From positions 20,059 through 84,058 of IMG/VR virus record IMGVR_UViG_3300014205_000206: DNA of 64,000 bases, one strand, 5' to 3'. Below are positions 22,890 through 52,259 of the stretch, piece by piece (position 1 is the stretch's first letter; every line of letters begins with the position of its first letter). Made by a program: the position numbers and the translations under genes. The stretch is from a virus. Lineage: Duplodnaviria; Caudoviricetes. The notes beneath the pieces were generated by a model. It was not told the DNA's origin. It was given only the letters and a program-made list of their open reading frames with translations, and ran no database searches.

Positions 22890-23191
22890 AACTGACAGTT
22901 GGTGACATCTACAAGCACGAAGTAATCGGAGAGATCGTCCTTATCGGACACGCCAACGAACAGGGAGGGGTCTGCGATGACTGCACACACGAATTCCTTC
23001 GCCACAGTGGTCATGGCCTCGCAGAAGGATGGACGCTCATCGACAACGTCCGAGCCGAGCTTGAAACCGTCAAAAAGCGAGCCTACATCGTCTGCCCAAA
23101 CTGCAATAAACTCGTAAAGACTAAGTTCGAACACGAAGAAGTCAGCCACCATAACGGTGACTACTACTGGGGATGCACACGCGCAAAATGA
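22886..23191 (+). CDS. Hypothetical protein with CPNC motif
   Basis: ATGA overlap with upstream gene. Confidence 0.6.
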   Translation: MKLTVGDIYKHEVIGEIVLIGHANEQGGVCDDCTHEFLRHSGHGLAEGWTLIDNVRAELETVKKRAYIVCPNCNKLVKTKFEHEEVSHHNGDYYWGCTRAK

Positions 23192-24894
23192 ACGAACCGA
23201 CGACAGTACGAGTTGAACAACCGGTCTACGGAGCGCAACAACTCGTCGCTCGAGCTCCGTACGAATTCCGGTTCAAGCTGGCGGACATACCTGGGGCCAA
23301 ATGGAGCGGCACAAAAAAGGCTTGGACGTATCCTGTCTCACCTACAACCGCCGTCTATCTGGCCGGATTGCTGGGAGACGCGGCATTTCAGGCGGATGCA
23401 GCCGCTATGGCTCTTTTGAATTCAGGGCGATCCAACCATCAGGTCAGCGCGTCCAAGGTGGCGGCGTCCGCCAAGGCTGGTGACCTTGAACCGCTACCGT
23501 TTGAAGTCGTCACGCAGCCATGGGCTCACCAACTCGGCATGGTCCGTTTCACTGAGCCCCTACCAGCCGCGCTATGGAACGTCGGACTTGGCGCAGGCAA
23601 GTCCAGAGCCGCATTGGACTTGATCCGACTTCGAAAGCACGCCAAAACGCTCATTGTAGCTCCACTTTCTGTCGTTCCGTCGTGGGCCGAGCAAGTACGA
23701 CGCCATGCTCCGGGTGCAGTTCGCATCGTTACCCTCAACGAGGGGTCAACCGCATCTAGGGCCAAGAAAGCAGCCGAAGCGTGGGCTCGTGGAACACCCG
23801 AAATGCCGTCAATCGTCGTTACGAACTACGCTTGTGCGTACACACTGGTTTTCTTGCACGCCATGTCGGCGGCGAAACTTGATTTTATGGTCTGCGATGA
23901 GGTGCATGCTATTAAAGCACCTCAAGGGAAGCAGAGCATCGCTCTTTCACGCGCTGCGGTAGGAATTCCGTACCGTTTGGGGCTTTCTGGCACTCCGTTG
24001 CCGAACAGCCCGATGGATGGATACGGCGTATTCCGATTCCTAGACCCCGGAGTGTTTGGAAAGTCGTACGTTGCATTTAGAACCCGTTTCGCCAGAATGG
24101 GAGGTTTTCAGGGCAAACAAGTGATGGGATACCAAAATATCGACGAATTTTCTCGTCGAATCGCCCCATTTACCTATGAAGTGGACCGTTCTGTGCTTGA
24201 TTTGCCTCCATTTACGCATATCGAACGAGTTTTTACGCTCAATCCGGAGGCTGCTGCGTTCTACAATGAACTCAAGAACGATCTAATCTCCACCGTCAAT
24301 GAAGGTGTCGTCACAGCGACCAACGCACTCACCAAACTGCTCCGATTGTCGCAAGTAGCGTCCGGACATGTCGGAATGGACATCGACCCGGCTGATTTTG
24401 ACGAAAACGGCACCGCTCCAGAGCGCAAAATCACCGAAATCCACACCCAGAAGCAGCAACTACTACGTGAAGTGCTAGAAGAGATCGATCCAAAAGAGCC
24501 GGTCGTGATCTTCACTCGCTTTAAGCACGACATGACCCAAGTTCGAACCGCATGTGAAGGGCTAGGCGAAGTTGCCGAGCTTTCCGGATCGGTCAAAGAG
24601 CTTGAAAAGTGGCAAAAACCTGATGGACCGAGGTTCCTTGCTGTACAAATTCAATCTGGAGCCGAAGGAATCGACCTTACTAGGTCGGCGTACTCGGTGT
24701 ATTTTTCGAAAGATTTTTCTAGGAGCCGCTACATACAATCCTTGGCGCGTTCACACCGTCCGGGGCAACACAAAGCGGTCACCTACGTCCATCTAATCGC
24801 AGAAAACACCGTTGACAGGTCAATTATGAAAGCGATGGAGAAAAAAGGTAAGCTAGTCGATGAAGTTCTAGATGAAATCAGAAAATGGTCCTGA
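23188..24894 (+). CDS. SNF2-family helicase with N-terminal HARP-like domain
   Basis: VGLGAGKS, DEVHAIK, LSGTPLPNS, QSGAEGIDL, RSHRPGQ; N-terminal IPGAKWSGTKKAWTYP. Confidence 0.9.
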   Translation: MNEPTTVRVEQPVYGAQQLVARAPYEFRFKLADIPGAKWSGTKKAWTYPVSPTTAVYLAGLLGDAAFQADAAAMALLNSGRSNHQVSASKVAASAKAGDLEPLPFEVVTQPWAHQLGMVRFTEPLPAALWNVGLGAGKSRAALDLIRLRKHAKTLIVAPLSVVPSWAEQVRRHAPGAVRIVTLNEGSTASRAKKAAEAWARGTPEMPSIVVTNYACAYTLVFLHAMSAAKLDFMVCDEVHAIKAPQGKQSIALSRAAVGIPYRLGLSGTPLPNSPMDGYGVFRFLDPGVFGKSYVAFRTRFARMGGFQGKQVMGYQNIDEFSRRIAPFTYEVDRSVLDLPPFTHIERVFTLNPEAAAFYNELKNDLISTVNEGVVTATNALTKLLRLSQVASGHVGMDIDPADFDENGTAPERKITEIHTQKQQLLREVLEEIDPKEPVVIFTRFKHDMTQVRTACEGLGEVAELSGSVKELEKWQKPDGPRFLAVQIQSGAEGIDLTRSAYSVYFSKDFSRSRYIQSLARSHRPGQHKAVTYVHLIAENTVDRSIMKAMEKKGKLVDEVLDEIRKWS

Positions 24895-25676
24895 AATCAG
24901 GCATCTACACGATTCGTAACGTCGTCAACGGGAAGCGATACGTTGGATCAGCCAAAAATCTGACTAGTAGATGGAATGCACACAGAAACGGACTCAAACT
25001 AGGGAAGCACGAAAACTCGCATTTGCAAAAATCATGGAACAAACACGGAGAACCGGCTTTTTTATTTGAAGTTATACTTTTTTGCCAACCCGAACACCTG
25101 ATTTTCTACGAGCAAATATGCATCGATACGTTAAAACCTAAGTACAACATATGCATGACCGCTGGATCTTTGCTTGGTTATAAGCAAACAGAAGAAGTTA
25201 AGGCCAAGATGAGCGAGGCGAGAAAAGGCTGGAATCCAAGCGAATCGGTTAGAGCTAACATGAGTATCGCAGCAAAAGGGAGAAAATTTAGCAACGAAAC
25301 GAAAGCAAAAATAAAAGCTTCTTTGGTCAATTATTGGTCAAATCAACCGGACAGGAGGAAGCAAGTAAGTCAAATGTTTAAGGGTAAAAATCAAAGCGAG
25401 GAAGCTAAAGCAAAAAGGAGTGCGGCAATGAAAGGAAAGAAGCTTAGCGAAGAAACAAAATCTAAGATTAGCGCAGCAAACATGGGAAAGAAGCCAAGCG
25501 AAGAAACTAGAGCTAAGATGAGTGCAGCAAAGAATGGCCATAATCCTAGTAAAGAAACTAGGGCTAAGCTTAGCGCAGCAGGCCGAAAACGCAAGTTTAG
25601 TGAAGAAAGCAGGTCTAAAATAAGCGCAGCAATGTTCGCCAGGTGGGCAAAAAAGAAAGAACTAGCAGCCCAATGA
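24885..25676 (+). CDS. GIY-YIG homing endonuclease with NUMOD3 repeats
   Basis: GIYTIRNVVNGKRYVGSA; repeated SEETKAKMSAA motifs; AT-richer than flanks. Confidence 0.9.
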   Translation: MVLKSGIYTIRNVVNGKRYVGSAKNLTSRWNAHRNGLKLGKHENSHLQKSWNKHGEPAFLFEVILFCQPEHLIFYEQICIDTLKPKYNICMTAGSLLGYKQTEEVKAKMSEARKGWNPSESVRANMSIAAKGRKFSNETKAKIKASLVNYWSNQPDRRKQVSQMFKGKNQSEEAKAKRSAAMKGKKLSEETKSKISAANMGKKPSEETRAKMSAAKNGHNPSKETRAKLSAAGRKRKFSEESRSKISAAMFARWAKKKELAAQ

Positions 25677-28087: not shown

Positions 28088-28410
28088 CCAACGAAAGAAC
28101 CGTACCGAACAGTCCACATCACTACCACACCTACGTGCTCGCATTCGATGAGTTCCGAAACATGTGGCGCTTGAGCGCCAACGGAGTCATCGTGCCGCTC
28201 AACATCCTGTCGCAAGATCACGAAGAACGCTACGTGAAGCTCGGGCAAATCCGAGGCAAGGAAGCCCGCGAGCTGGCGATCCATGTGGCGCGTACTATGC
28301 TAGAGCACACCTACCAGAGCTTCGATCAGGCATCCAAACTAGTTGTGCTAGACGAAAACGGAGAAGTCAACTATACTTTCATTGTGCCGACAACTGCGGA
28401 ACAATACTAA
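28084..28410 (+). CDS. Hypothetical protein
   Basis: ATGA overlap; 108 aa. Confidence 0.6.
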   Translation: MTNERTVPNSPHHYHTYVLAFDEFRNMWRLSANGVIVPLNILSQDHEERYVKLGQIRGKEARELAIHVARTMLEHTYQSFDQASKLVVLDENGEVNYTFIVPTTAEQY

Positions 28411-28448
28411 GGTCATTTGGCTTTCCAGTTTTACGGAGAAATCGACTC

Positions 28449-29024
28449 TTGACCGGCGTTTACGCGATCCTGAACAAAAAAACGGGCCAGCAATATATTG
28501 GCTCAGCCGTGAGCATTAAACGACGATGGCACGCTCACAAATGCACGCTCCGCAAGGGCAAACATAAGAACCGCCAGCTTCAAGCTGCTTGGAATCTGGA
28601 CGGCGAGGCTGCGTTCGAATTCAGGATCATCACGCTTTGTAGCAAGTGGGAAGCGCTGGTGTGGGAGCAGCAAGCCATGGAGACACAGGACTGCTCCTAC
28701 AACATCGCTCCTACTGCCGGGACCACGGCTGGGGTGTCCCTAACTACCGAGACTATCGCCAAGATGAAGGCTGCAAAGGCTAACGTCAGCGATGTCACAC
28801 GGGAGCGAATCAGTCAGTCGATGATGGGGCACGTTACTAGTGAAGAAACCAAGCGCAAGATTAGCCAAGCTACCAAGGGTCGGAAACTGAGCCCAGAGCA
28901 AGTTGCCAAGCGACGCGGGAAGAAAGCTTCTATTGCAACTCGCGAGAAAATACGTCAAGCTCGGCACAAGACGTATCTAACCAAAAACAGACTGTTCGTA
29001 TCACCTACCAAGGAGAGCACATGA
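28449..29024 (+). CDS. Second GIY-YIG homing endonuclease with NUMOD3 repeats
   Basis: GVYAILNKKTGQQYIGSA; SEETKRKISQA; likely TTG start 28449 after GGAG. Confidence 0.85.
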   Translation: MTGVYAILNKKTGQQYIGSAVSIKRRWHAHKCTLRKGKHKNRQLQAAWNLDGEAAFEFRIITLCSKWEALVWEQQAMETQDCSYNIAPTAGTTAGVSLTTETIAKMKAAKANVSDVTRERISQSMMGHVTSEETKRKISQATKGRKLSPEQVAKRRGKKASIATREKIRQARHKTYLTKNRLFVSPTKEST

Positions 29025-29679: not shown

Positions 29680-29708
29680 TTGACATACCGGCGGCACCGT
29701 TCTAATAT
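29680..29708 (+). promoter_or_regulatory. Early sigma70 promoter P1
   Basis: TTGACA-17-TAATAT. Confidence 0.85.
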
Positions 29709-31970: not shown

Positions 31971-32236
31971 GCGCGTGTGGGCCACTTTTTCGAGCCTAGA
32001 GCGAGCCCGGCGGCGAGCAAGCCGCACGGCTTGCTCGCGACTTTGCGGGCGCTCGGCTAAAAGGCGCAAAAGCGGCATAAAAGCGCACCTGGGCGTCTAG
32101 TTCGCAAAAGCAGCATTTCCCGTAACTTAGCGATTTTCGGCTTTACTTGGCTTGACTTCAAAAACGCCAAGTGGCATGGGAGCTGCATGCTAATAAGCAA
32201 AGTTAAGCGCGCAGTAAAAATAAGTTCGCTTACCTA

Positions 32237-32265
32237 TTGACACAAGCATGGTAGGTTGGTATTCT
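32237..32265 (+). promoter_or_regulatory. Early sigma70 promoter P3
   Basis: TTGACA-17-TATTCT, upstream AAAAATAAGT. Confidence 0.85.
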
Positions 32266-32358
32266 ATGCATGTGGTGATTGATAAGTTGCTTTAGTTGGT
32301 CCGGTAGTACCGGACGCGGCAATCATGCCGCTTCCGCGAAGTCCGATAGGAGTAAGTA

Positions 32359-32940
32359 ATGTCCAAGAACAACCAGCAGCCGAAGCAGACCGCCGAAGTC
32401 GCCGCCACCGAGCAGACCGCTCCCGCCACCGAGCAGACCGCTCCCGCCACCGAGCAGACCGCTCCCGCCGCTCCGCGCCAGCCCATCGTGCTCGACATGG
32501 AGGCCATCGCGGCGCAGGAAGTCATCGTCGCGGATCTCACCGCCAAGCTCGAAGCGGCCAAGGCCGGCGGAAACGACCACGCCATCGCCGAAGCGAAGAA
32601 GATCCGCAAGGGCGCCACCGACAAGTTGTGGCGCTTGCAGAACCCCGGCGGCAAGGGTGGCACGCGCTCGCCCAACTCGCCCAAGGCCGCGAGCAACCCC
32701 AACACGCTCCACATCGCGCTTCCCGAAGCGACCGTCACGGCGCTCGACGCGGCCGTCGCCAAGTTCGCCCCGGTCGGGCTCGACCGCTCCGCCGCTCTGA
32801 ACATGGTCATCGAGAGCGCCACCGAGTCGATCCTCAAGTTCGACTCCGTCGAGTCCTTCGCCACCGGGCTGAAGGCTCTGCTCGACGCCAAGATCGCGGC
32901 CATGGTCGCGCTCCAGAGCGACCTCCTCGCCTCCAAGTAG
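32359..32940 (+). CDS. Early protein with C-terminal ribbon-helix-helix-like domain
   Basis: TLHIALP-EATVTALDAAVAKF-DRSAALNMVIESA; monocistronic between P3 and terminator. Confidence 0.7.
   Translation: MSKNNQQPKQTAEVAATEQTAPATEQTAPATEQTAPAAPRQPIVLDMEAIAAQEVIVADLTAKLEAAKAGGNDHAIAEAKKIRKGATDKLWRLQNPGGKGGTRSPNSPKAASNPNTLHIALPEATVTALDAAVAKFAPVGLDRSAALNMVIESATESILKFDSVESFATGLKALLDAKIAAMVALQSDLLASK
32404..32466 (+). repeat. 21-bp tandem repeat x3 (ATEQTAP)
   Basis: GCCACCGAGCAGACCGCTCCC x3. Confidence 0.95.
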
Positions 32941-32946
32941 TTCTCC

Positions 32947-32985
32947 AGCCCCGCAGCGGTCCCCAAGCCGCTGCGGGGCTTTTTT
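32947..32985 (+). terminator. Rho-independent terminator
   Basis: AGCCCCGCAGCGG-N8-CCGCTGCGGGGCT followed by TTTTT. Confidence 0.9.
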
Positions 32986-33226
32986 GTGCCCGCCGCCTAC
33001 TTCGCTTCGCCCAGGTCCGTCCGCAGCCTCGGTTTCTTAGCTTTTGTGGTTTTCCGCTTTACTTGGCTTAACTTCAAAGGCGGGAAAAGCGGCAAAAGCG
33101 GCTAAGCAAGGCGTCCAAGGCGAATTCTAGTAAAACGGCGCCGCTTTACTTCAGAGCGCCATGCTGGGCGCGGCTTTGCTCGTAAAGCGTCGAGCCAACA
33201 AAAGCTAAAATAAGTGACCTTACCTA

Positions 33227-33255
33227 TTGACTCAAGTGCGCTTAGATGGTATTAT
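33227..33255 (+). promoter_or_regulatory. Early sigma70 promoter P4
   Basis: TTGACT-17-TATTAT, upstream AAAATAAGT and CTTACCTA shared with P3. Confidence 0.85.
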
Positions 33256-33261
33256 AGGCAT

Positions 33262-33722
33262 GTAATAAGGAATATGTACTTGGTTGGCTGCTGGCGGCGG
33301 GTGGGCGGATCGAGCAACTTGGAGTGCCGATCAAGCCCGATATGGTGGCCGAAAGTCACCCCCGTTTGTAGGGCGAGGTAAAAGCTAGGCGCGGCACCGG
33401 AGCCCGGTGAGCCAAGCGAAACGCCTCGGGGTCCTTGACAGGTTTGTGTAGAGCACTTCAAGCCGTCCACACCAATGGATCGCTCTGGGAGTATCTTGGC
33501 CAGCGGAGCGTGAAGTTTATCAATGTGTGGCTCGTGTGCTTGCAAGATCACGGCTCGTAAATCACGATAGAAGGCCGCAAGCGCTTGGTTGCGACTTGCG
33601 GGGGACCGCATTACTCAGAAATCAAAACATTTAGCTTAAAGTGGGCCTTCCGGCCCATGACGAGCGCTCCGAAAGCGTTGCTGGACGAGCGTTCATCAAG
33701 TGCCGGAATTCACCGAGCGCTT
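33262..33722 (+). ncRNA. Candidate large structured ncRNA or very long structured leader
   Basis: About 460 nt with no RBS-supported ORF after P4; about nine consecutive hairpins (see findings). Confidence 0.5.
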
Positions 33723-33742
33723 ACAGTAAAAAAGGAGTATGT

Positions 33743-33898
33743 ATGACACTTTTCGACTTGCTGATGGCGATTGGCTTGATGCTCGCTTCGGGAGCCGTCA
33801 TGGTCCGGCTCGACAAAGGCATGAGCGAGCGCGAGTTGCTCGCCTACCACCTCAAGCAGAACCGCAAGCGTCGGGCGCTGCGGGCGGTGGCCAAGTGA
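33743..33898 (+). CDS. Small membrane protein
   Basis: AAGGAG RBS; LFDLLMAIGLMLASGAVMV. Confidence 0.65.
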   Translation: MTLFDLLMAIGLMLASGAVMVRLDKGMSERELLAYHLKQNRKRRALRAVAK

Positions 33899-34116
33899 GC
33901 GATCTCAAGGCGGCAGAGTGGACTTCGCTGAGCGTGGACGAGGCGTTCAAGCGCCGGGACGAGGCAAAGGAGGCGCTTGAAGCCAACGACGCCAAACTTG
34001 CAGAACTCACGACCCAGATTTCGGCGCTGTACGACTCGCGAAGCTACCTCCACGCTAACTACGACTTCGCTGACAAGATGCTCGGACTCGCGATCCAAGC
34101 GGAGGAGGCCAAGTGA
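33895..34116 (+). CDS. Hypothetical coiled-coil protein
   Basis: GTGA overlap. Confidence 0.65.
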   Translation: MSDLKAAEWTSLSVDEAFKRRDEAKEALEANDAKLAELTTQISALYDSRSYLHANYDFADKMLGLAIQAEEAK

Positions 34117-34259
34117 GTAAGGAAGCGCTCCAGTTCATCTACGACGCGCTTATCGTCGGCGCTGTTGGCGAGCAGAGCGACGGACTTCCTTGGGGAGTCC
34201 AGATCGAAGTGTGGAAGTTCATCGAGGAACTCGAAGCCAAGATCAAGGAGGCAAAGTGA
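34113..34259 (+). CDS. Hypothetical 48-aa protein (not in ORF track)
   Basis: GTGA overlaps at both ends, GGAGG RBS. Confidence 0.6.
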   Translation: MSKEALQFIYDALIVGAVGEQSDGLPWGVQIEVWKFIEELEAKIKEAK

Positions 34260-34621
34260 CCAGCACCGACTACCGAGCGAAGTACAAGGAGTGGGACGAG
34301 CATGTGAAGGCGGCTGAGCAACTTTTGGCGGAGGCGAAAGCAAGCGTCGAGCGCTCCAAGCGTGTGCTTTTGGACGCCGAAGGGCTGCTCTGGAAAGCCA
34401 AGTTCGAGCGCCGGGAGTGCGAGGACATGTTCTTTCTTCAGGTCCAGTACGAAGAGGCGCTCGAATCGGCTGGCAACACGGCAAGCCCAAATTCGGGCGA
34501 AAGGGGCTTCGAACCTGGCTGCGGTTGCTGTTCGGGTCCGGAAGCGGATCGTTGCTGCTGCTCCATACACCAAGACGTGTCGCGAGGACTTCTCCCGCAC
34601 AAGTGTTCGCTCCACATGTAG
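34256..34621 (+). CDS. Coiled-coil protein with Cys-rich C-terminus
   Basis: GCGCCSGPEADRCCCSIH...HKCSLH. Confidence 0.6.
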   Translation: MTSTDYRAKYKEWDEHVKAAEQLLAEAKASVERSKRVLLDAEGLLWKAKFERRECEDMFFLQVQYEEALESAGNTASPNSGERGFEPGCGCCSGPEADRCCCSIHQDVSRGLLPHKCSLHM

Positions 34622-34718
34622 GTCGGCTACTAAGTAGAGCCTGAAGCCTATGCCGGGAGCCTAAATACTCCCCGGCATTGCTTGAGGCCCGGACTTACCC
34701 GAGCCCAAAGGAGGAAGT

Positions 34719-34961
34719 ATGGCCCGTCAAGACATGACGCAGCAGGAAGCCGAACGCTTGGTTCACCAGCAGTACGGCCAGCTTCAAACCGCCACTCTCA
34801 CGCTGGTCGAGCTGTACGAAGCTCGCATGATCTCCAAGCAAGCTCGCGAGATGCGTCGAGAGCAGCGGCAGCTCCACAGCTCGGGTCTGGAGTACATCGG
34901 GAACTATGACGAAGTGGACGAAGGCGGCTTGCTGTGGGACGGCGGGATCGCGGAGGGCTGA
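34719..34961 (+). CDS. Hypothetical protein
   Basis: AAGGAGG RBS. Confidence 0.7.
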   Translation: MARQDMTQQEAERLVHQQYGQLQTATLTLVELYEARMISKQAREMRREQRQLHSSGLEYIGNYDEVDEGGLLWDGGIAEG

Positions 34962-41316: not shown

Positions 41317-41633
41317 CCCGCGAGAACAAGGTGTTCTTTTCGTCCTTGGTTGCTGGAGCGGTTGCTTTTAGTGCGATGTTCGCTGTTGTTGCGTGCGGAA
41401 CCCACAAGCCCGAGCAGTCGAAGCCAGCAGCGTCGGGCGGCGACGAGTTGATGGAGTACGATGGCCTTCCATCCACCTCTGTGCACTTGTGGAAAGATCC
41501 CGACACCGGCTGCGAGTACCTGTACGCCTCGGGCGGCTACGTCCTGCATCCTCGCATCGCGAGCGATGGCATGACTCACCGAGGATGCCTCAATCCTCAT
41601 TCACCGGCTCAGTACGTTTCGGAGGGCAAATGA
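41313..41633 (+). CDS. Putative lipoprotein (DUF6440-like)
   Basis: Signal peptide ending VVAC; WKDPDTGCEYLY. Confidence 0.65.
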   Translation: MTRENKVFFSSLVAGAVAFSAMFAVVACGTHKPEQSKPAASGGDELMEYDGLPSTSVHLWKDPDTGCEYLYASGGYVLHPRIASDGMTHRGCLNPHSPAQYVSEGK

Positions 41634-41701
41634 AAAAGATCGAGCAGTTCAGTGACTTGATCGGGGAAACGATCAAGTCGATCATTCTTTCTATTAAATA
41701 G
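41630..41701 (+). pseudogene. Possible truncated gene remnant (23 codons)
   Basis: GGAGGG RBS and ATGA overlap, but the ORF stops after MKKIEQFSDLIGETIKSIILSIK. Confidence 0.3.
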
Positions 41702-41784
41702 CCCGAAACGAGCCCAGCGAGGCTCGTCGCTGCGTCAAGCGCAGCCTGACGATGGGCGTCAGTAACAGAAAGGAGTGTGAAGCT

Positions 41785-42588: not shown

Positions 42589-42761
42589 GCAAAAAATGGT
42601 ACATCAGAGTACTGTTCGCCTGCATTGCGTTCCAGCTTGCCGTCATGGCGTTTCTGCCGGAGTGCAACGAAGCGGCGATGGTTAACCTTGCTGTATTCCT
42701 CGTCGCGGCGGGTTGCTGTGCGCTCAACTGGATTCACGAAAACAGGAAGAGCGCAAAGTGA
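42585..42761 (+). CDS. Small two-TM membrane protein (58 aa; not in ORF track)
   Basis: MSKKWYIRVLFACIAFQLAVMAFL...LAVFLVAAGCCALNW; overlaps both neighbours. Confidence 0.6.
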   Translation: MSKKWYIRVLFACIAFQLAVMAFLPECNEAAMVNLAVFLVAAGCCALNWIHENRKSAK

Positions 42762-44155
42762 GCCGCATCAGCATCCCACACACGCTTGCATCCATCCTGT
42801 CCGTTCCGAAGCTTCGGAATAGCTACCTCGTCGGCGGCTGCGTCCGCGACGCAGTGATGGGGCTCACTCCGAAGGACTTCGACGTTGAAGTCTTCGGCTT
42901 GGAGTACGACGAGCTGGCAGCGATCCTCGACAACTTTGGTCGAGTGGACATTGTCGGCAAGAGCTTCGGAGTCCTGAAGCTGACCAAGAACGGCGAGACG
43001 TACGACTTCAACCTACCGCGCATCGACTCGAAAGTTGGCGACACGCATCGCGACTTCAAAGTGCGCGTCGATCACGGGCTGACGCTTCGGCAGGCGGCTT
43101 CGAGGCGTGACTTCACTATCAACGCGCTGGCGTATGATCCGAGGACCGAGGAAGTCATCGACAACTTCGGCGGACTCCACGACATCGAGCACAAGAATCT
43201 TCGCCACATTGGTGAGTCGTTCGCGGACGATCCGCTTCGCGTCATGCGAGGGATGCAGTTCTGCGGGCGCTTCGGACTGAACGTTACCTTCGATACGATG
43301 CTTTTGTGTCGCAAGATCAAAGGGACGTTCGACGCGATCTCAGGAGAGCGCCTGTGGATGGAGTGGTACAAATGGGCAGCAATGTCCACGAAGCCGTCAG
43401 ACGGGCTGTGGTTTCTGGAAGCAGTCGAGTGGATCGAGCATTTCCCGATCTTGAAAAACATGGTCGGGTGTGAGCAAGATCCGGAGTGGCACCCAGAAGG
43501 TGATGTGATGACGCACACTCATCATTGCTGTGACTCGCTTGTTGAGTCGGGCGAATGGTTCGTCCGCGACAAGGACGAACGAGCTGTGCTGATGATGGCT
43601 GTGCTTCTTCACGACTGCGGCAAGCATCTGGTTACGGAGTGGGTGATGCGAGACGGAGTCAATCGGATCGTTTCTCCTAATCACGACATGATAGGAGGAT
43701 CGCTGGCTGGCAACTTCCTTAGCAAGATGAAAGCGCCGGAAGAGCTACGAAAGCAAGTGAAGGCGCTGGTTTCCTGCCACATGGCGCACTTGAACCAGCC
43801 GTCGAAGCGTACGGTAAGGCGGCTGGCCGAGCGGCTGCATCCGGCGACCATCGAGCAGCTCATGGTGGTGATCCAGGCGGACCACGCGGGTCGGCCTCCG
43901 CTGCCGAAGGATATGCCAGCGAACGCGCTGGAAATCAAGCGGCTTGCGAAGGAACTGAACGTCGAAGCGTCGGCACCGAAGCCGCTAGTGCTTGGTCGGC
44001 ATCTGATCGAGCTGGGCTTGCGGCCGGGTCCGGATTTCAAGCGGTATCTGACGGCGCTTTTCGAGATGCAGCTCGACGGTGATTTCGACAACCTCGAAGA
44101 TGGTAAGTTGCTGTTGAAAATCGCGGTGGAAGAGGAGGGGTTGAATGAGCAATAA
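42758..44155 (+). CDS. cca: Class II tRNA nucleotidyltransferase (CCA-adding) with HD domain
   Basis: YLVGGCVRD..KDFDV, RRDFTINALA, DDPLR, HPEGDVMTH, LLHDCGK; GTG start 42758. Confidence 0.9.
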   Translation: MSRISIPHTLASILSVPKLRNSYLVGGCVRDAVMGLTPKDFDVEVFGLEYDELAAILDNFGRVDIVGKSFGVLKLTKNGETYDFNLPRIDSKVGDTHRDFKVRVDHGLTLRQAASRRDFTINALAYDPRTEEVIDNFGGLHDIEHKNLRHIGESFADDPLRVMRGMQFCGRFGLNVTFDTMLLCRKIKGTFDAISGERLWMEWYKWAAMSTKPSDGLWFLEAVEWIEHFPILKNMVGCEQDPEWHPEGDVMTHTHHCCDSLVESGEWFVRDKDERAVLMMAVLLHDCGKHLVTEWVMRDGVNRIVSPNHDMIGGSLAGNFLSKMKAPEELRKQVKALVSCHMAHLNQPSKRTVRRLAERLHPATIEQLMVVIQADHAGRPPLPKDMPANALEIKRLAKELNVEASAPKPLVLGRHLIELGLRPGPDFKRYLTALFEMQLDGDFDNLEDGKLLLKIAVEEEGLNEQ

Positions 44156-50940: not shown

Positions 50941-52259
50941 AGGGTAATTTCGAATGCGTAAGCGAATCGACTCCGCAGTTCGTGCGCCGATGCTCAAGCT
51001 TCCAAGGATCATATAGCGGCTTCGGTAAAGTCCACGCAACCAGAAACGGCAAGTCTACGATCTGCGGCAAGTTTATGGAAAACGAATGGATGCTGTACGA
51101 CGAACTTCTTAAGGCGCTTGATGCTCAAGGCTCGTACTCTAGCCTTCCGGTGTTCTGTGAAGTGTGTCGTACTACCAAAAACGCAGTCAATCCAAGCACA
51201 GTACAGGAGGCTGAAGTGGGAAAAAAGAAAACTGACCATCAAAAGGACCTGTTGCCAATGTGGGATGGAAAAGCGAAGGGGACGACTTCTGGTTCTGGAT
51301 ATATGTCCGGGGGCGGAAGCTACGGGCAAGCGGGGTTCGTGTACGGAGCGAACACTTGCGTCCACAACGGAACCAAGGTGATGTGCATACTTGAGCGAGG
51401 CATCAACCTTGCCGGGTCGAAGGGTGCTGATGTCGAGTACGAAGCTGCGGACGTTGTCATCGACTGCGCCGGAATCACGAAGAAGGATTTCAACAATCCT
51501 GTCGGTAGCCTGCTGTCTGGAACAACGAGGCTTGTTGATGCCGTAAAAGAGTCGATCACGCACCCCGACACTTTGTTCATCGACTGGCCGGACATGAAGA
51601 CTCCGAAAGTTGGCCCGAAGTTTTGGGTCATGCTGTTGAAGGCGATTCCCGACAATTCGAGGGTGGTTGTCTGCTGCATGGGAAGCCACGGACGGACGGG
51701 CACGGCGATGGCTTGCTTGATCGCCGCGAACGGATTGACGCTCGGGAAAGAAAATGTCCCGGACGCTGTTGACATTATCAAGTTCGTGCGAAAGAATCAT
51801 TGTTCAAAGGCGGTTGAAACGCAGTCTCAGGAGGATTACGTAGCCAAGATCGTCGCAAACCTCAAAGACCCAGGCAATCCGGAAGAAGTGAAGCGCCAGT
51901 GGGCGCTGAACGACGCCGCCTTCAAGAAGGCCGAGGTTGCAACGATTGTTTACCCAAAAGCCGAAACGCAGGGAAAGCAGGAAAGCAACGCAACAAGCAA
52001 AAACAGCGAAACCAAGGATGCAAGTCAGGTCACAAGTCCGGCGGACGAAAGCGGTGAAGACATCATGTTCGTCGATGCAGCCGGAAACGTCGTCAGCGAA
52101 AGCGGAGACGTTGTTTTCGAAAAGGGTAAGCTGAGCGCCGAAGAGCGCGAGTGGTCGAAAGAACTGCCGACTTGGTCTGAGTACATTCAGCAGCGGTACG
52201 AGACGGGCAAGGAAGTCGCTTCGAACAACAACCATGAAGGAGGTAAGAATGGGAACTGA
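50937..52259 (+). CDS. CX5R protein-tyrosine/dual-specificity phosphatase-like protein
   Basis: IDWPDMKTP (general-acid loop), VCCMGSHGRTGT, VRKNHCSKAVETQSQ. Confidence 0.85.
   Translation: MKGNFECVSESTPQFVRRCSSFQGSYSGFGKVHATRNGKSTICGKFMENEWMLYDELLKALDAQGSYSSLPVFCEVCRTTKNAVNPSTVQEAEVGKKKTDHQKDLLPMWDGKAKGTTSGSGYMSGGGSYGQAGFVYGANTCVHNGTKVMCILERGINLAGSKGADVEYEAADVVIDCAGITKKDFNNPVGSLLSGTTRLVDAVKESITHPDTLFIDWPDMKTPKVGPKFWVMLLKAIPDNSRVVVCCMGSHGRTGTAMACLIAANGLTLGKENVPDAVDIIKFVRKNHCSKAVETQSQEDYVAKIVANLKDPGNPEEVKRQWALNDAAFKKAEVATIVYPKAETQGKQESNATSKNSETKDASQVTSPADESGEDIMFVDAAGNVVSESGDVVFEKGKLSAEEREWSKELPTWSEYIQQRYETGKEVASNNNHEGGKNGN

Follow-up and report, generated by a model that had tools for sequence, protein, structure and literature searches.

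A conserved, structured leader RNA behind an early promoter of an uncultured tailed phage

Described phage leader RNAs and the P4 locus

To our knowledge, bacteria and phages have few conserved structured RNAs longer than 400 nt, and for most of them no function is known. The early leader of T7 runs from the A1–A3 promoters to the R0.3 RNase III site and mostly houses further promoters. The immunity RNAs c4 of P1/P7 and CI of phage P4, ~70–80 nt long, are cut out of an early-operon leader and target complementary sites on that same transcript. The put RNAs of HK022 bind the beta-prime zinc-binding domain of the elongating RNA polymerase and suppress pausing and termination. Each put RNA has ~70 nt and two stem-loops, with two related copies placed behind two early promoters and ahead of terminators, and their effect in cis extends for at least 10 kb (PMC9378689). 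Candidate structured RNAs have also been mined from IMG/VR by Fremin et al. 2023 (PMC10690425).

The locus described here lies in a 64,000-nt stretch of DNA, referred to as the window, which comprises bases 20059–84058 of the 84-kb IMG/VR record IMGVR_UViG_3300014205_000206, from an uncultured phage. The phage lacks a close cultured relative: its portal protein reaches no more than 30% identity with portals of Xanthomonas and Pseudomonas siphophages, and nucleotide BLAST of 33000–34300 against 50,697 cultured-phage records was without a match. Rightward genes begin near 21.8 kb of the window, and four sigma-70-like promoters were found, at 29680, 31386, 32237, and 33227. The last of these, P4 (33227–33255, + strand), consists of TTGACT, a 17-nt spacer with an extended -10 TG (33247–33248), and TATTAT, with an expected start site at about 33260–33262. 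Both hexamers are kept in nine aligned relatives, one of which reads TATCAT. The upstream gene, encoding a 193-aa protein, stops at 32940 and is followed by an intrinsic terminator (32947–32980, + strand; a 14-bp stem and then a T-run) that is invariant in all relatives and keeps the P4 unit insulated from P3. The first operon ORF has its Shine-Dalgarno (SD) and start region at 33723–33745 of the + strand (a variable spacer, GGAG at 33734–33737, and ATG at 33743–33745). As this is the first well-supported SD/ATG behind the promoter, the P4 leader is ~481 nt long, against about 75–90 nt for the P2 and P3 leaders. An initial annotation had drawn attention to this long untranslated gap, set against P2 and P3 leaders under 100 nt, and the lengths bear it out. 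Its statement that the gap holds no ORF supported by a ribosome-binding site was nearly right: an AUG at 33274 does sit 2 nt after AAGGA, but the peptide that it would start is unconserved.

P3 and P4 are duplicated cassettes, with 77% identity over 57 nt between 32217–32273 and 33207–33263. The first ~45 nt of the P4 leader resemble the P3 leader, GCATGT...GTTGG being common to both, and the P2 leader also has GTTGGC. These similarities suggest that all three early transcripts may carry a shared 5' element.

The P4 leader shares features with each described system and departs from each. Like HK022 putL and putR, it is a nascent structured RNA that directly follows a host-type early promoter and leads into a long operon, and, as with put, action in cis would require no terminator of its own; unlike the two-copy, two-stem-loop put RNAs, it is single-copy, ~480 nt long, and built of 21 helices in four domains. 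The T7 early leader likewise places a strong host-RNA-polymerase promoter and several hundred untranslated nucleotides ahead of many small early genes, yet it contains several promoters, whereas the P4 leader has one promoter and a covarying multi-domain fold. By analogy with T7, the long irregular hairpin H12–H17 described below could be an RNase III substrate. As with c4 and CI, a regulatory-type RNA is found inside the leader of an early operon, but the leader of promoter P4 has no Rfam C4 match and no complementary target pair was identified. With GOLLD, ROOL, OLE, HEARO, and raiA, it has in common a length above 400 nt, many helices, a conserved core, and the lack of a coding function, and phage association is common to GOLLD, ROOL, and this leader. 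In contrast to the GOLLD/ROOL class, it is not a free-standing gene, adjoins an SD and ATG, and is known from one narrow phage lineage. In kind it also resembles the candidates mined from IMG/VR (PMC10690425), being a covarying, unannotated RNA placed consistently upstream of phage genes.

Conservation and fold of the leader

Relatives were traced through the upstream protein, for which 12 homologs with 57–96% identity were found among metagenome proteins, and their contigs were retrieved; a pattern scan of one metagenome added one contig, L014. The intergenic region occurs in eight distinct versions in three clades, with relatives 80–91% identical to the window. Promoter and leader are retained in all eight distinct relatives, and the ~800-nt gap from the upstream gene to the next small ORF is kept in every contig that is long enough. 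In one contig, L003, the leader is identical to that of the window. Mean pairwise identity was highest in the core of the leader (0.93, given for 33441–33620 and for the core domain 33429–33608), followed by the whole leader (0.84), the upstream gene (0.80, with 0.81 at third codon positions), the operator spacer (0.72), and the first ORF of the operon (0.60). The ORF directly behind the leader is replaced among clades, and the leader always adjoins an SD and ATG, whichever ORF comes next; in L010, for example, the same SD and ATG are followed immediately by an additional 63-codon ORF.

The small early genes at 33743–34700 are mosaic among relatives (L004, L007, L010, L011), with a recombination boundary at or next to the start codon. 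In L012 (1306–1875), the most distant relative, an upstream-gene homolog with 57% identity is followed immediately by a homolog of ORF 34719–34961, a terminator, and operator boxes, so gene order around the cassettes has been rearranged in that lineage. The L012 contig ends before any leader could show and carries no information on leader absence.

The 193-aa upstream protein (32359–32940) gave an AlphaFold model with a mean pLDDT of 66 and four parts: a disordered N-terminus, a helical hairpin, a basic disordered loop, and a C-terminal helical domain. TEQTAPA repeats at the N-terminus vary in copy number between near-identical phages. Judging by its sequence, LHIALPEATVTALDAAVAKF, the C-terminal domain resembles DNA binders of the ribbon-helix-helix type, and a PDB profile search of the protein returned only a designed helical protein (E = 0.055). 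We regard the protein as a candidate regulator acting at the repeated operator boxes and not as an RNA-binding partner.

A consensus structure was computed with RNAalifold on 10 sequences (nine distinct, three clades). Its 21 helices hold 132 pairs, and pairing is kept in 98.8% of cells. Compensatory double changes were observed at 14 pairs, in helices H4, H6, H7, H10, H11, H12, H14, H18, and H20, against 0–4 when the 3' partners were slid by 1–3 columns; the structure was derived from the same alignment that was used for counting, and we estimate about a dozen independent events. None of 500 shuffles reached the observed pairing values. Several of the few variable sites of the near-invariant core form compensatory pairs over 117, 88, and 75 nt (alignment columns 194–311, 204–292, and 210–285), with a further pair at 331–338. 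Distant pair partners are what RNA pairing would produce, and codon degeneracy does not fit them. Two checks proposed in the initial annotation gave results of different weight. The comparison of homologs yielded the covariation just described, from ~8 distinct sequences, while the folding-energy excess over shuffles was weak and not significant for the single sequence (z = -1.65, for a minimum free energy of -177.6 kcal/mol that 5 of 100 shuffles matched).

The annotation had also listed nine local hairpins, seven of which recur in the consensus fold: 33304–33337, 33345–33359, 33374–33428 with its inner hairpin, 33481–33510, 33575–33601, 33641–33658, and 33659–33697. The other two, TCCA/TGGA and CGTG-CTTGCAAG-CACG, give way to long-range pairing supported by compensatory changes.

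From its 5' end, the RNA begins with a conserved, mostly unpaired, G/U-rich tail (33260–33296, + strand) that includes the invariant AAUAUGUACUUGG and the AUG at 33274. Helices 1–2, between this tail and the SD/start region, show one-sided changes only, and partition-function folding predicted the tail-SD pairing in three of seven relatives, so this helix is not relied on here. The same folding predicted the SD/start region to be mostly paired in most relatives. CUUGG in the tail could pair with an internal CCAAG, with a U-G to G-U change in L010/L011. The 5' domain follows (33297–33365), in which H4 (33297–33301/33361–33365) closes H5 (33304–33337) and H6 (33345–33359, loop CGAAA); double changes affect two pairs of H4 and one of H6, and cells of both helices are 100% paired. 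In the second domain (33374–33428), H7 (33374–33379/33423–33428) surrounds a variable hairpin and has two double-change pairs (AU/GU/GC and GC/AU). The inner hairpin is swapped in the L010/L011 clade, with the stem retained.

The core domain (33429–33608, + strand), the most conserved part, consists of the closing helix H11, the long hairpin H12–H17 (33444–33567; irregular, ~120 nt, with ~40 bp in total), and H18 (33575–33601). It is followed by an A/U-rich linker (33609–33640) that is unpaired in the consensus and has the invariant AUUACUCAG and then a variable stretch, with a 7-nt deletion in one clade; this linker is a candidate processing site. The 3' domain (33641–33722) is made up of H19 (33641–33658; invariant, loop UUCC), H20 (33659–33697; two double-change pairs, and a loop that varies in sequence and length on a retained stem), and H21 (33698–33722; one-sided UA to UG changes). 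The U-run after H21 is 2–4 nt long and unconserved, and no terminator was found between the structured RNA and the first ORF. Several further motifs were considered by eye and set aside. A pseudoknot of AUUACUCAG with an apical loop or with the SD was rejected, as the loop varies uncompensated and the L007 clade no longer has the match to the SD; CsrA-type GGA loops, 6S-like bubbles, a boxA-like CGCUCUGG, and CRISPR-repeat mimicry were unconvincing.

Strand comparisons favour the + strand for the RNA. Consensus energy was -150.45 kcal/mol for this strand and -116.07 for the reverse complement, the covariation term was -5.85 versus -1.81, and compensatory pairs numbered 14 versus 8. The + strand structure contains 133 G-U cells and 4 A-C cells, and 21 of its pairs alternate between Watson-Crick and G-U, versus 2 that alternate with A-C. 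This bias agrees with the direction of P4 and counts against an element acting at the DNA level, such as a site bound by protein or an origin-associated transcript of the type of ColE1 RNA II or the T4 R-loop origins. Toward its 5' end the transcript is rich in G (33280–33310), with positive GC skew, as a priming transcript might be, but compensatory changes and the excess of G-U over A-C are RNA-level signatures, and iterons or repeats were not seen in the stretch; we regard a role in DNA binding or priming as very improbable. Compensatory pairs in excess of controls, a G-U strand bias, and conservation above that of the neighbours, in nine distinct rows, are the generic marks of a structured non-coding RNA, and we state with high confidence that a conserved structured RNA exists at 33260–33742.

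Coding tests, family, and distribution

The leader is non-coding. Its identity by phase was 0.858, 0.865, and 0.836, without three-base periodicity, and indels of 1, 4, 6, and 7 nt occur among the relatives. A 1-nt deletion inside the core is present in three sequences from two clades, so no ORF runs through the core. A search for a conserved ORF on both strands of the leader among the relatives found none, each being broken or drifting. Three frames were weighed as a possible small gene or leader peptide. The uORF at AUG 33274 has the most in its favour, since neither the AUG nor the first five codons (MYL[V/G]G) vary and AAGGA lies 2 nt upstream in one clade. Its peptide is nevertheless only ~57% identical between clades where the DNA is ~83% identical, and its stop shifts to give 35, 45, or 59 codons, with a frameshift in L010/L011. 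The TTG ORF at 33435–33560 is frameshifted by the 1-nt indel in three relatives, and its variable sites show no third-codon-position enrichment and form RNA pairs instead. A 119-codon ORF on the minus strand (33252–33611) was predicted by a gene caller on the near-identical contig L003, but it is split in most relatives and has no PHROG family match. With the lack of periodicity added, translation of any of these frames as a real small gene or leader peptide is highly unlikely.

No Rfam 15 family was found at gathering thresholds in the whole 64-kb window, and with E up to 10 there was nothing at 33262–33640 and only miRNA-precursor noise on H20. The Rfam models of GOLLD, ROOL, OLE, HEARO, raiA, 6S, C4, riboswitches, ribozymes, group I/II introns, and RNase P did not match the leader, and ARAGORN found neither a tRNA nor a tmRNA gene in the window. 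The initial annotation, which had recognised no tRNA, tmRNA, RNase P, hammerhead, or group I/II intron core by eye and had proposed a cmscan comparison with Rfam, agrees with these empty searches. Its suggestion of a new large structured non-coding phage RNA under an early promoter of its own is likewise upheld by the conservation, the compensatory changes, the strand asymmetry, the missing coding signal, and the absence from Rfam. The leader is a new structured RNA family relative to Rfam, with a narrow known distribution in one phage lineage.

Elsewhere in the window, Pfam identified a CCA-adding enzyme (42713–44155; PolyA_pol head and HD), two GIY-YIG/NUMOD3 homing-type endonucleases (24885–25676 and 28164–29024), and an SNF2-family helicase (23173–24894). 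The CCA-adding enzyme is present though the window is without a tRNA gene. A proposed hammerhead ribozyme at 41630–41757 stayed below the Rfam gathering score, where a variant core could escape the model. The terminator region of the upstream gene (32900–32985) gave sub-threshold matches to sX13, a Xanthomonadaceae sRNA (19.5–30.5 bits against a gathering score of 50), that recur in the window, L010, L011, and L015; these are probably terminator-hairpin noise and at most a faint hint of the host.

A covariance model of the core, R1, found a single copy in the 84-kb record and none in a distant 96-kb virus record, and short-word BLAST of the stretch found no repeats and no iterons. Three invariant core 19–23-mers, scanned exactly in IMG/VR beyond the phage's own record, gave 0 matches. 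GTDB genome scans with core patterns gave no true match, two chance matches being rejected by the covariance model, and locus searches in IMG/VR with single proteins found nothing. A profile search with the upstream protein returned only L018, a 30%-identical segment in a 341-aa ORF of an unrelated AT-rich phage, which was set aside as it has no RNA match. Eighteen DNA sequencing runs contain 0.2–0.36 of the searched words, and we base no claim about habitat or distribution on them. In RNA libraries from three studies, the relatives' contigs on 32300–34700 all lie inside the leader, within 33374–33621; they are short and low-depth, and their position would be compatible with a leader RNA that is abundant, but DNA carry-over is possible, diverged flanks would escape, and neither ends nor transcription are proven by them.

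The leader RNA at the head of the early operon

From 33.7 to 53 kb, consensus scans of the + strand turned up a single sigma-70-like promoter matching at more than 9 of 12 positions, at 51769, and no strong intrinsic terminator. P4 is the final sigma-70-like promoter ahead of a run of + strand genes that spans at least 20 kb. The P4 unit may be very long, or the later genes may use another promoter type.

We conclude that 33260–33742 is very probably transcribed rightward from the early promoter P4 as a ~480-nt RNA with a 5' tail, two small 5' domains, a 180-nt core, and three 3' hairpins. The reading we prefer, at somewhat under an even chance, is that this leader acts in cis, heading the mRNA of a long rightward operon of small early genes. 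A host or phage factor would dock on the invariant core, and the fold would set the expression level of the operon, possibly through mRNA stability, shielding of the long untranslated stretch against Rho, and/or the accessibility of the first ribosome-binding site. Action in cis is favoured because no terminator precedes the first ORF, because the element always adjoins an SD and ATG, because P4 is the last promoter of its type before at least 20 kb of genes, and because folding predicts a largely paired SD/start region in most relatives. A core this conserved is not needed for a plain stabilising or insulating leader. It fits a specific partner, and does so equally for an RNA acting in trans.

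In such a trans-acting role, a stable non-coding RNA would be cut from the operon mRNA, for instance at the linker 33609–33640, and the core would build up and bind a host or phage protein during host takeover, serving as decoy, sponge, or scaffold. That the core is conserved in sequence even within its stems points to a specific macromolecular partner; the variable A/U-rich single-stranded linker parts the core from the 3' hairpins, and the leader heads an early module of small genes without family matches. The confinement of the RNA-library contigs to the leader is a weak hint in the same direction, but these are the low-depth fragments with possible DNA carry-over noted above. Moreover, the RNA is without a terminator of its own, and no complementary target was found elsewhere in the phage genome. 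We consider such a processed trans-acting RNA less likely than not, though nearly as likely as a cis leader.

A further rival reading is an RNA-only processive antiterminator of the put type, in which the nascent leader would bind the RNA polymerase transcribing it and render that polymerase resistant to pausing and Rho over the ~30-kb operon. Such an element should be promoter-proximal behind a host-type early promoter, as the leader is, and the very long co-oriented run of genes without a further sigma-70-like promoter would suit it, given the reach of put RNAs in cis of at least 10 kb (PMC9378689). However, the size, architecture, and copy number of put are unmatched by a ~480-nt, 21-helix, single-copy leader, and the scan of 33.7–53 kb offered no strong intrinsic terminator for an antiterminator to act on, a scan of this kind being blind to Rho-dependent sites. 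We rate a put-like antiterminator as improbable. A broader proposal, that this would be a new class of large phage RNA whose 180-nt core, released or within the leader, binds a central host machine such as RNA polymerase, the degradosome, or the ribosome and so reprograms it during takeover (as a larger-than-put antiterminator or a stable decoy), is tentative, and we would give it a minority chance.

This RNA has a clear transcriptional context, with a consensus host-type promoter heading the operon for early host takeover. The fold is defined, can be tested, and includes long-range pairs backed by compensatory changes, and the conservation of its core exceeds that of the neighbouring genes. 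Since P4 matches the sigma-70 consensus, a synthetic copy of the element can be studied in a laboratory strain, with no need to isolate the phage. If it is only a stabilising leader, it would still be a new family for RNA catalogues. Binding of the core to RNA polymerase or some other central host factor, if it occurs, would add a new RNA-based mode of phage control over the early programme.
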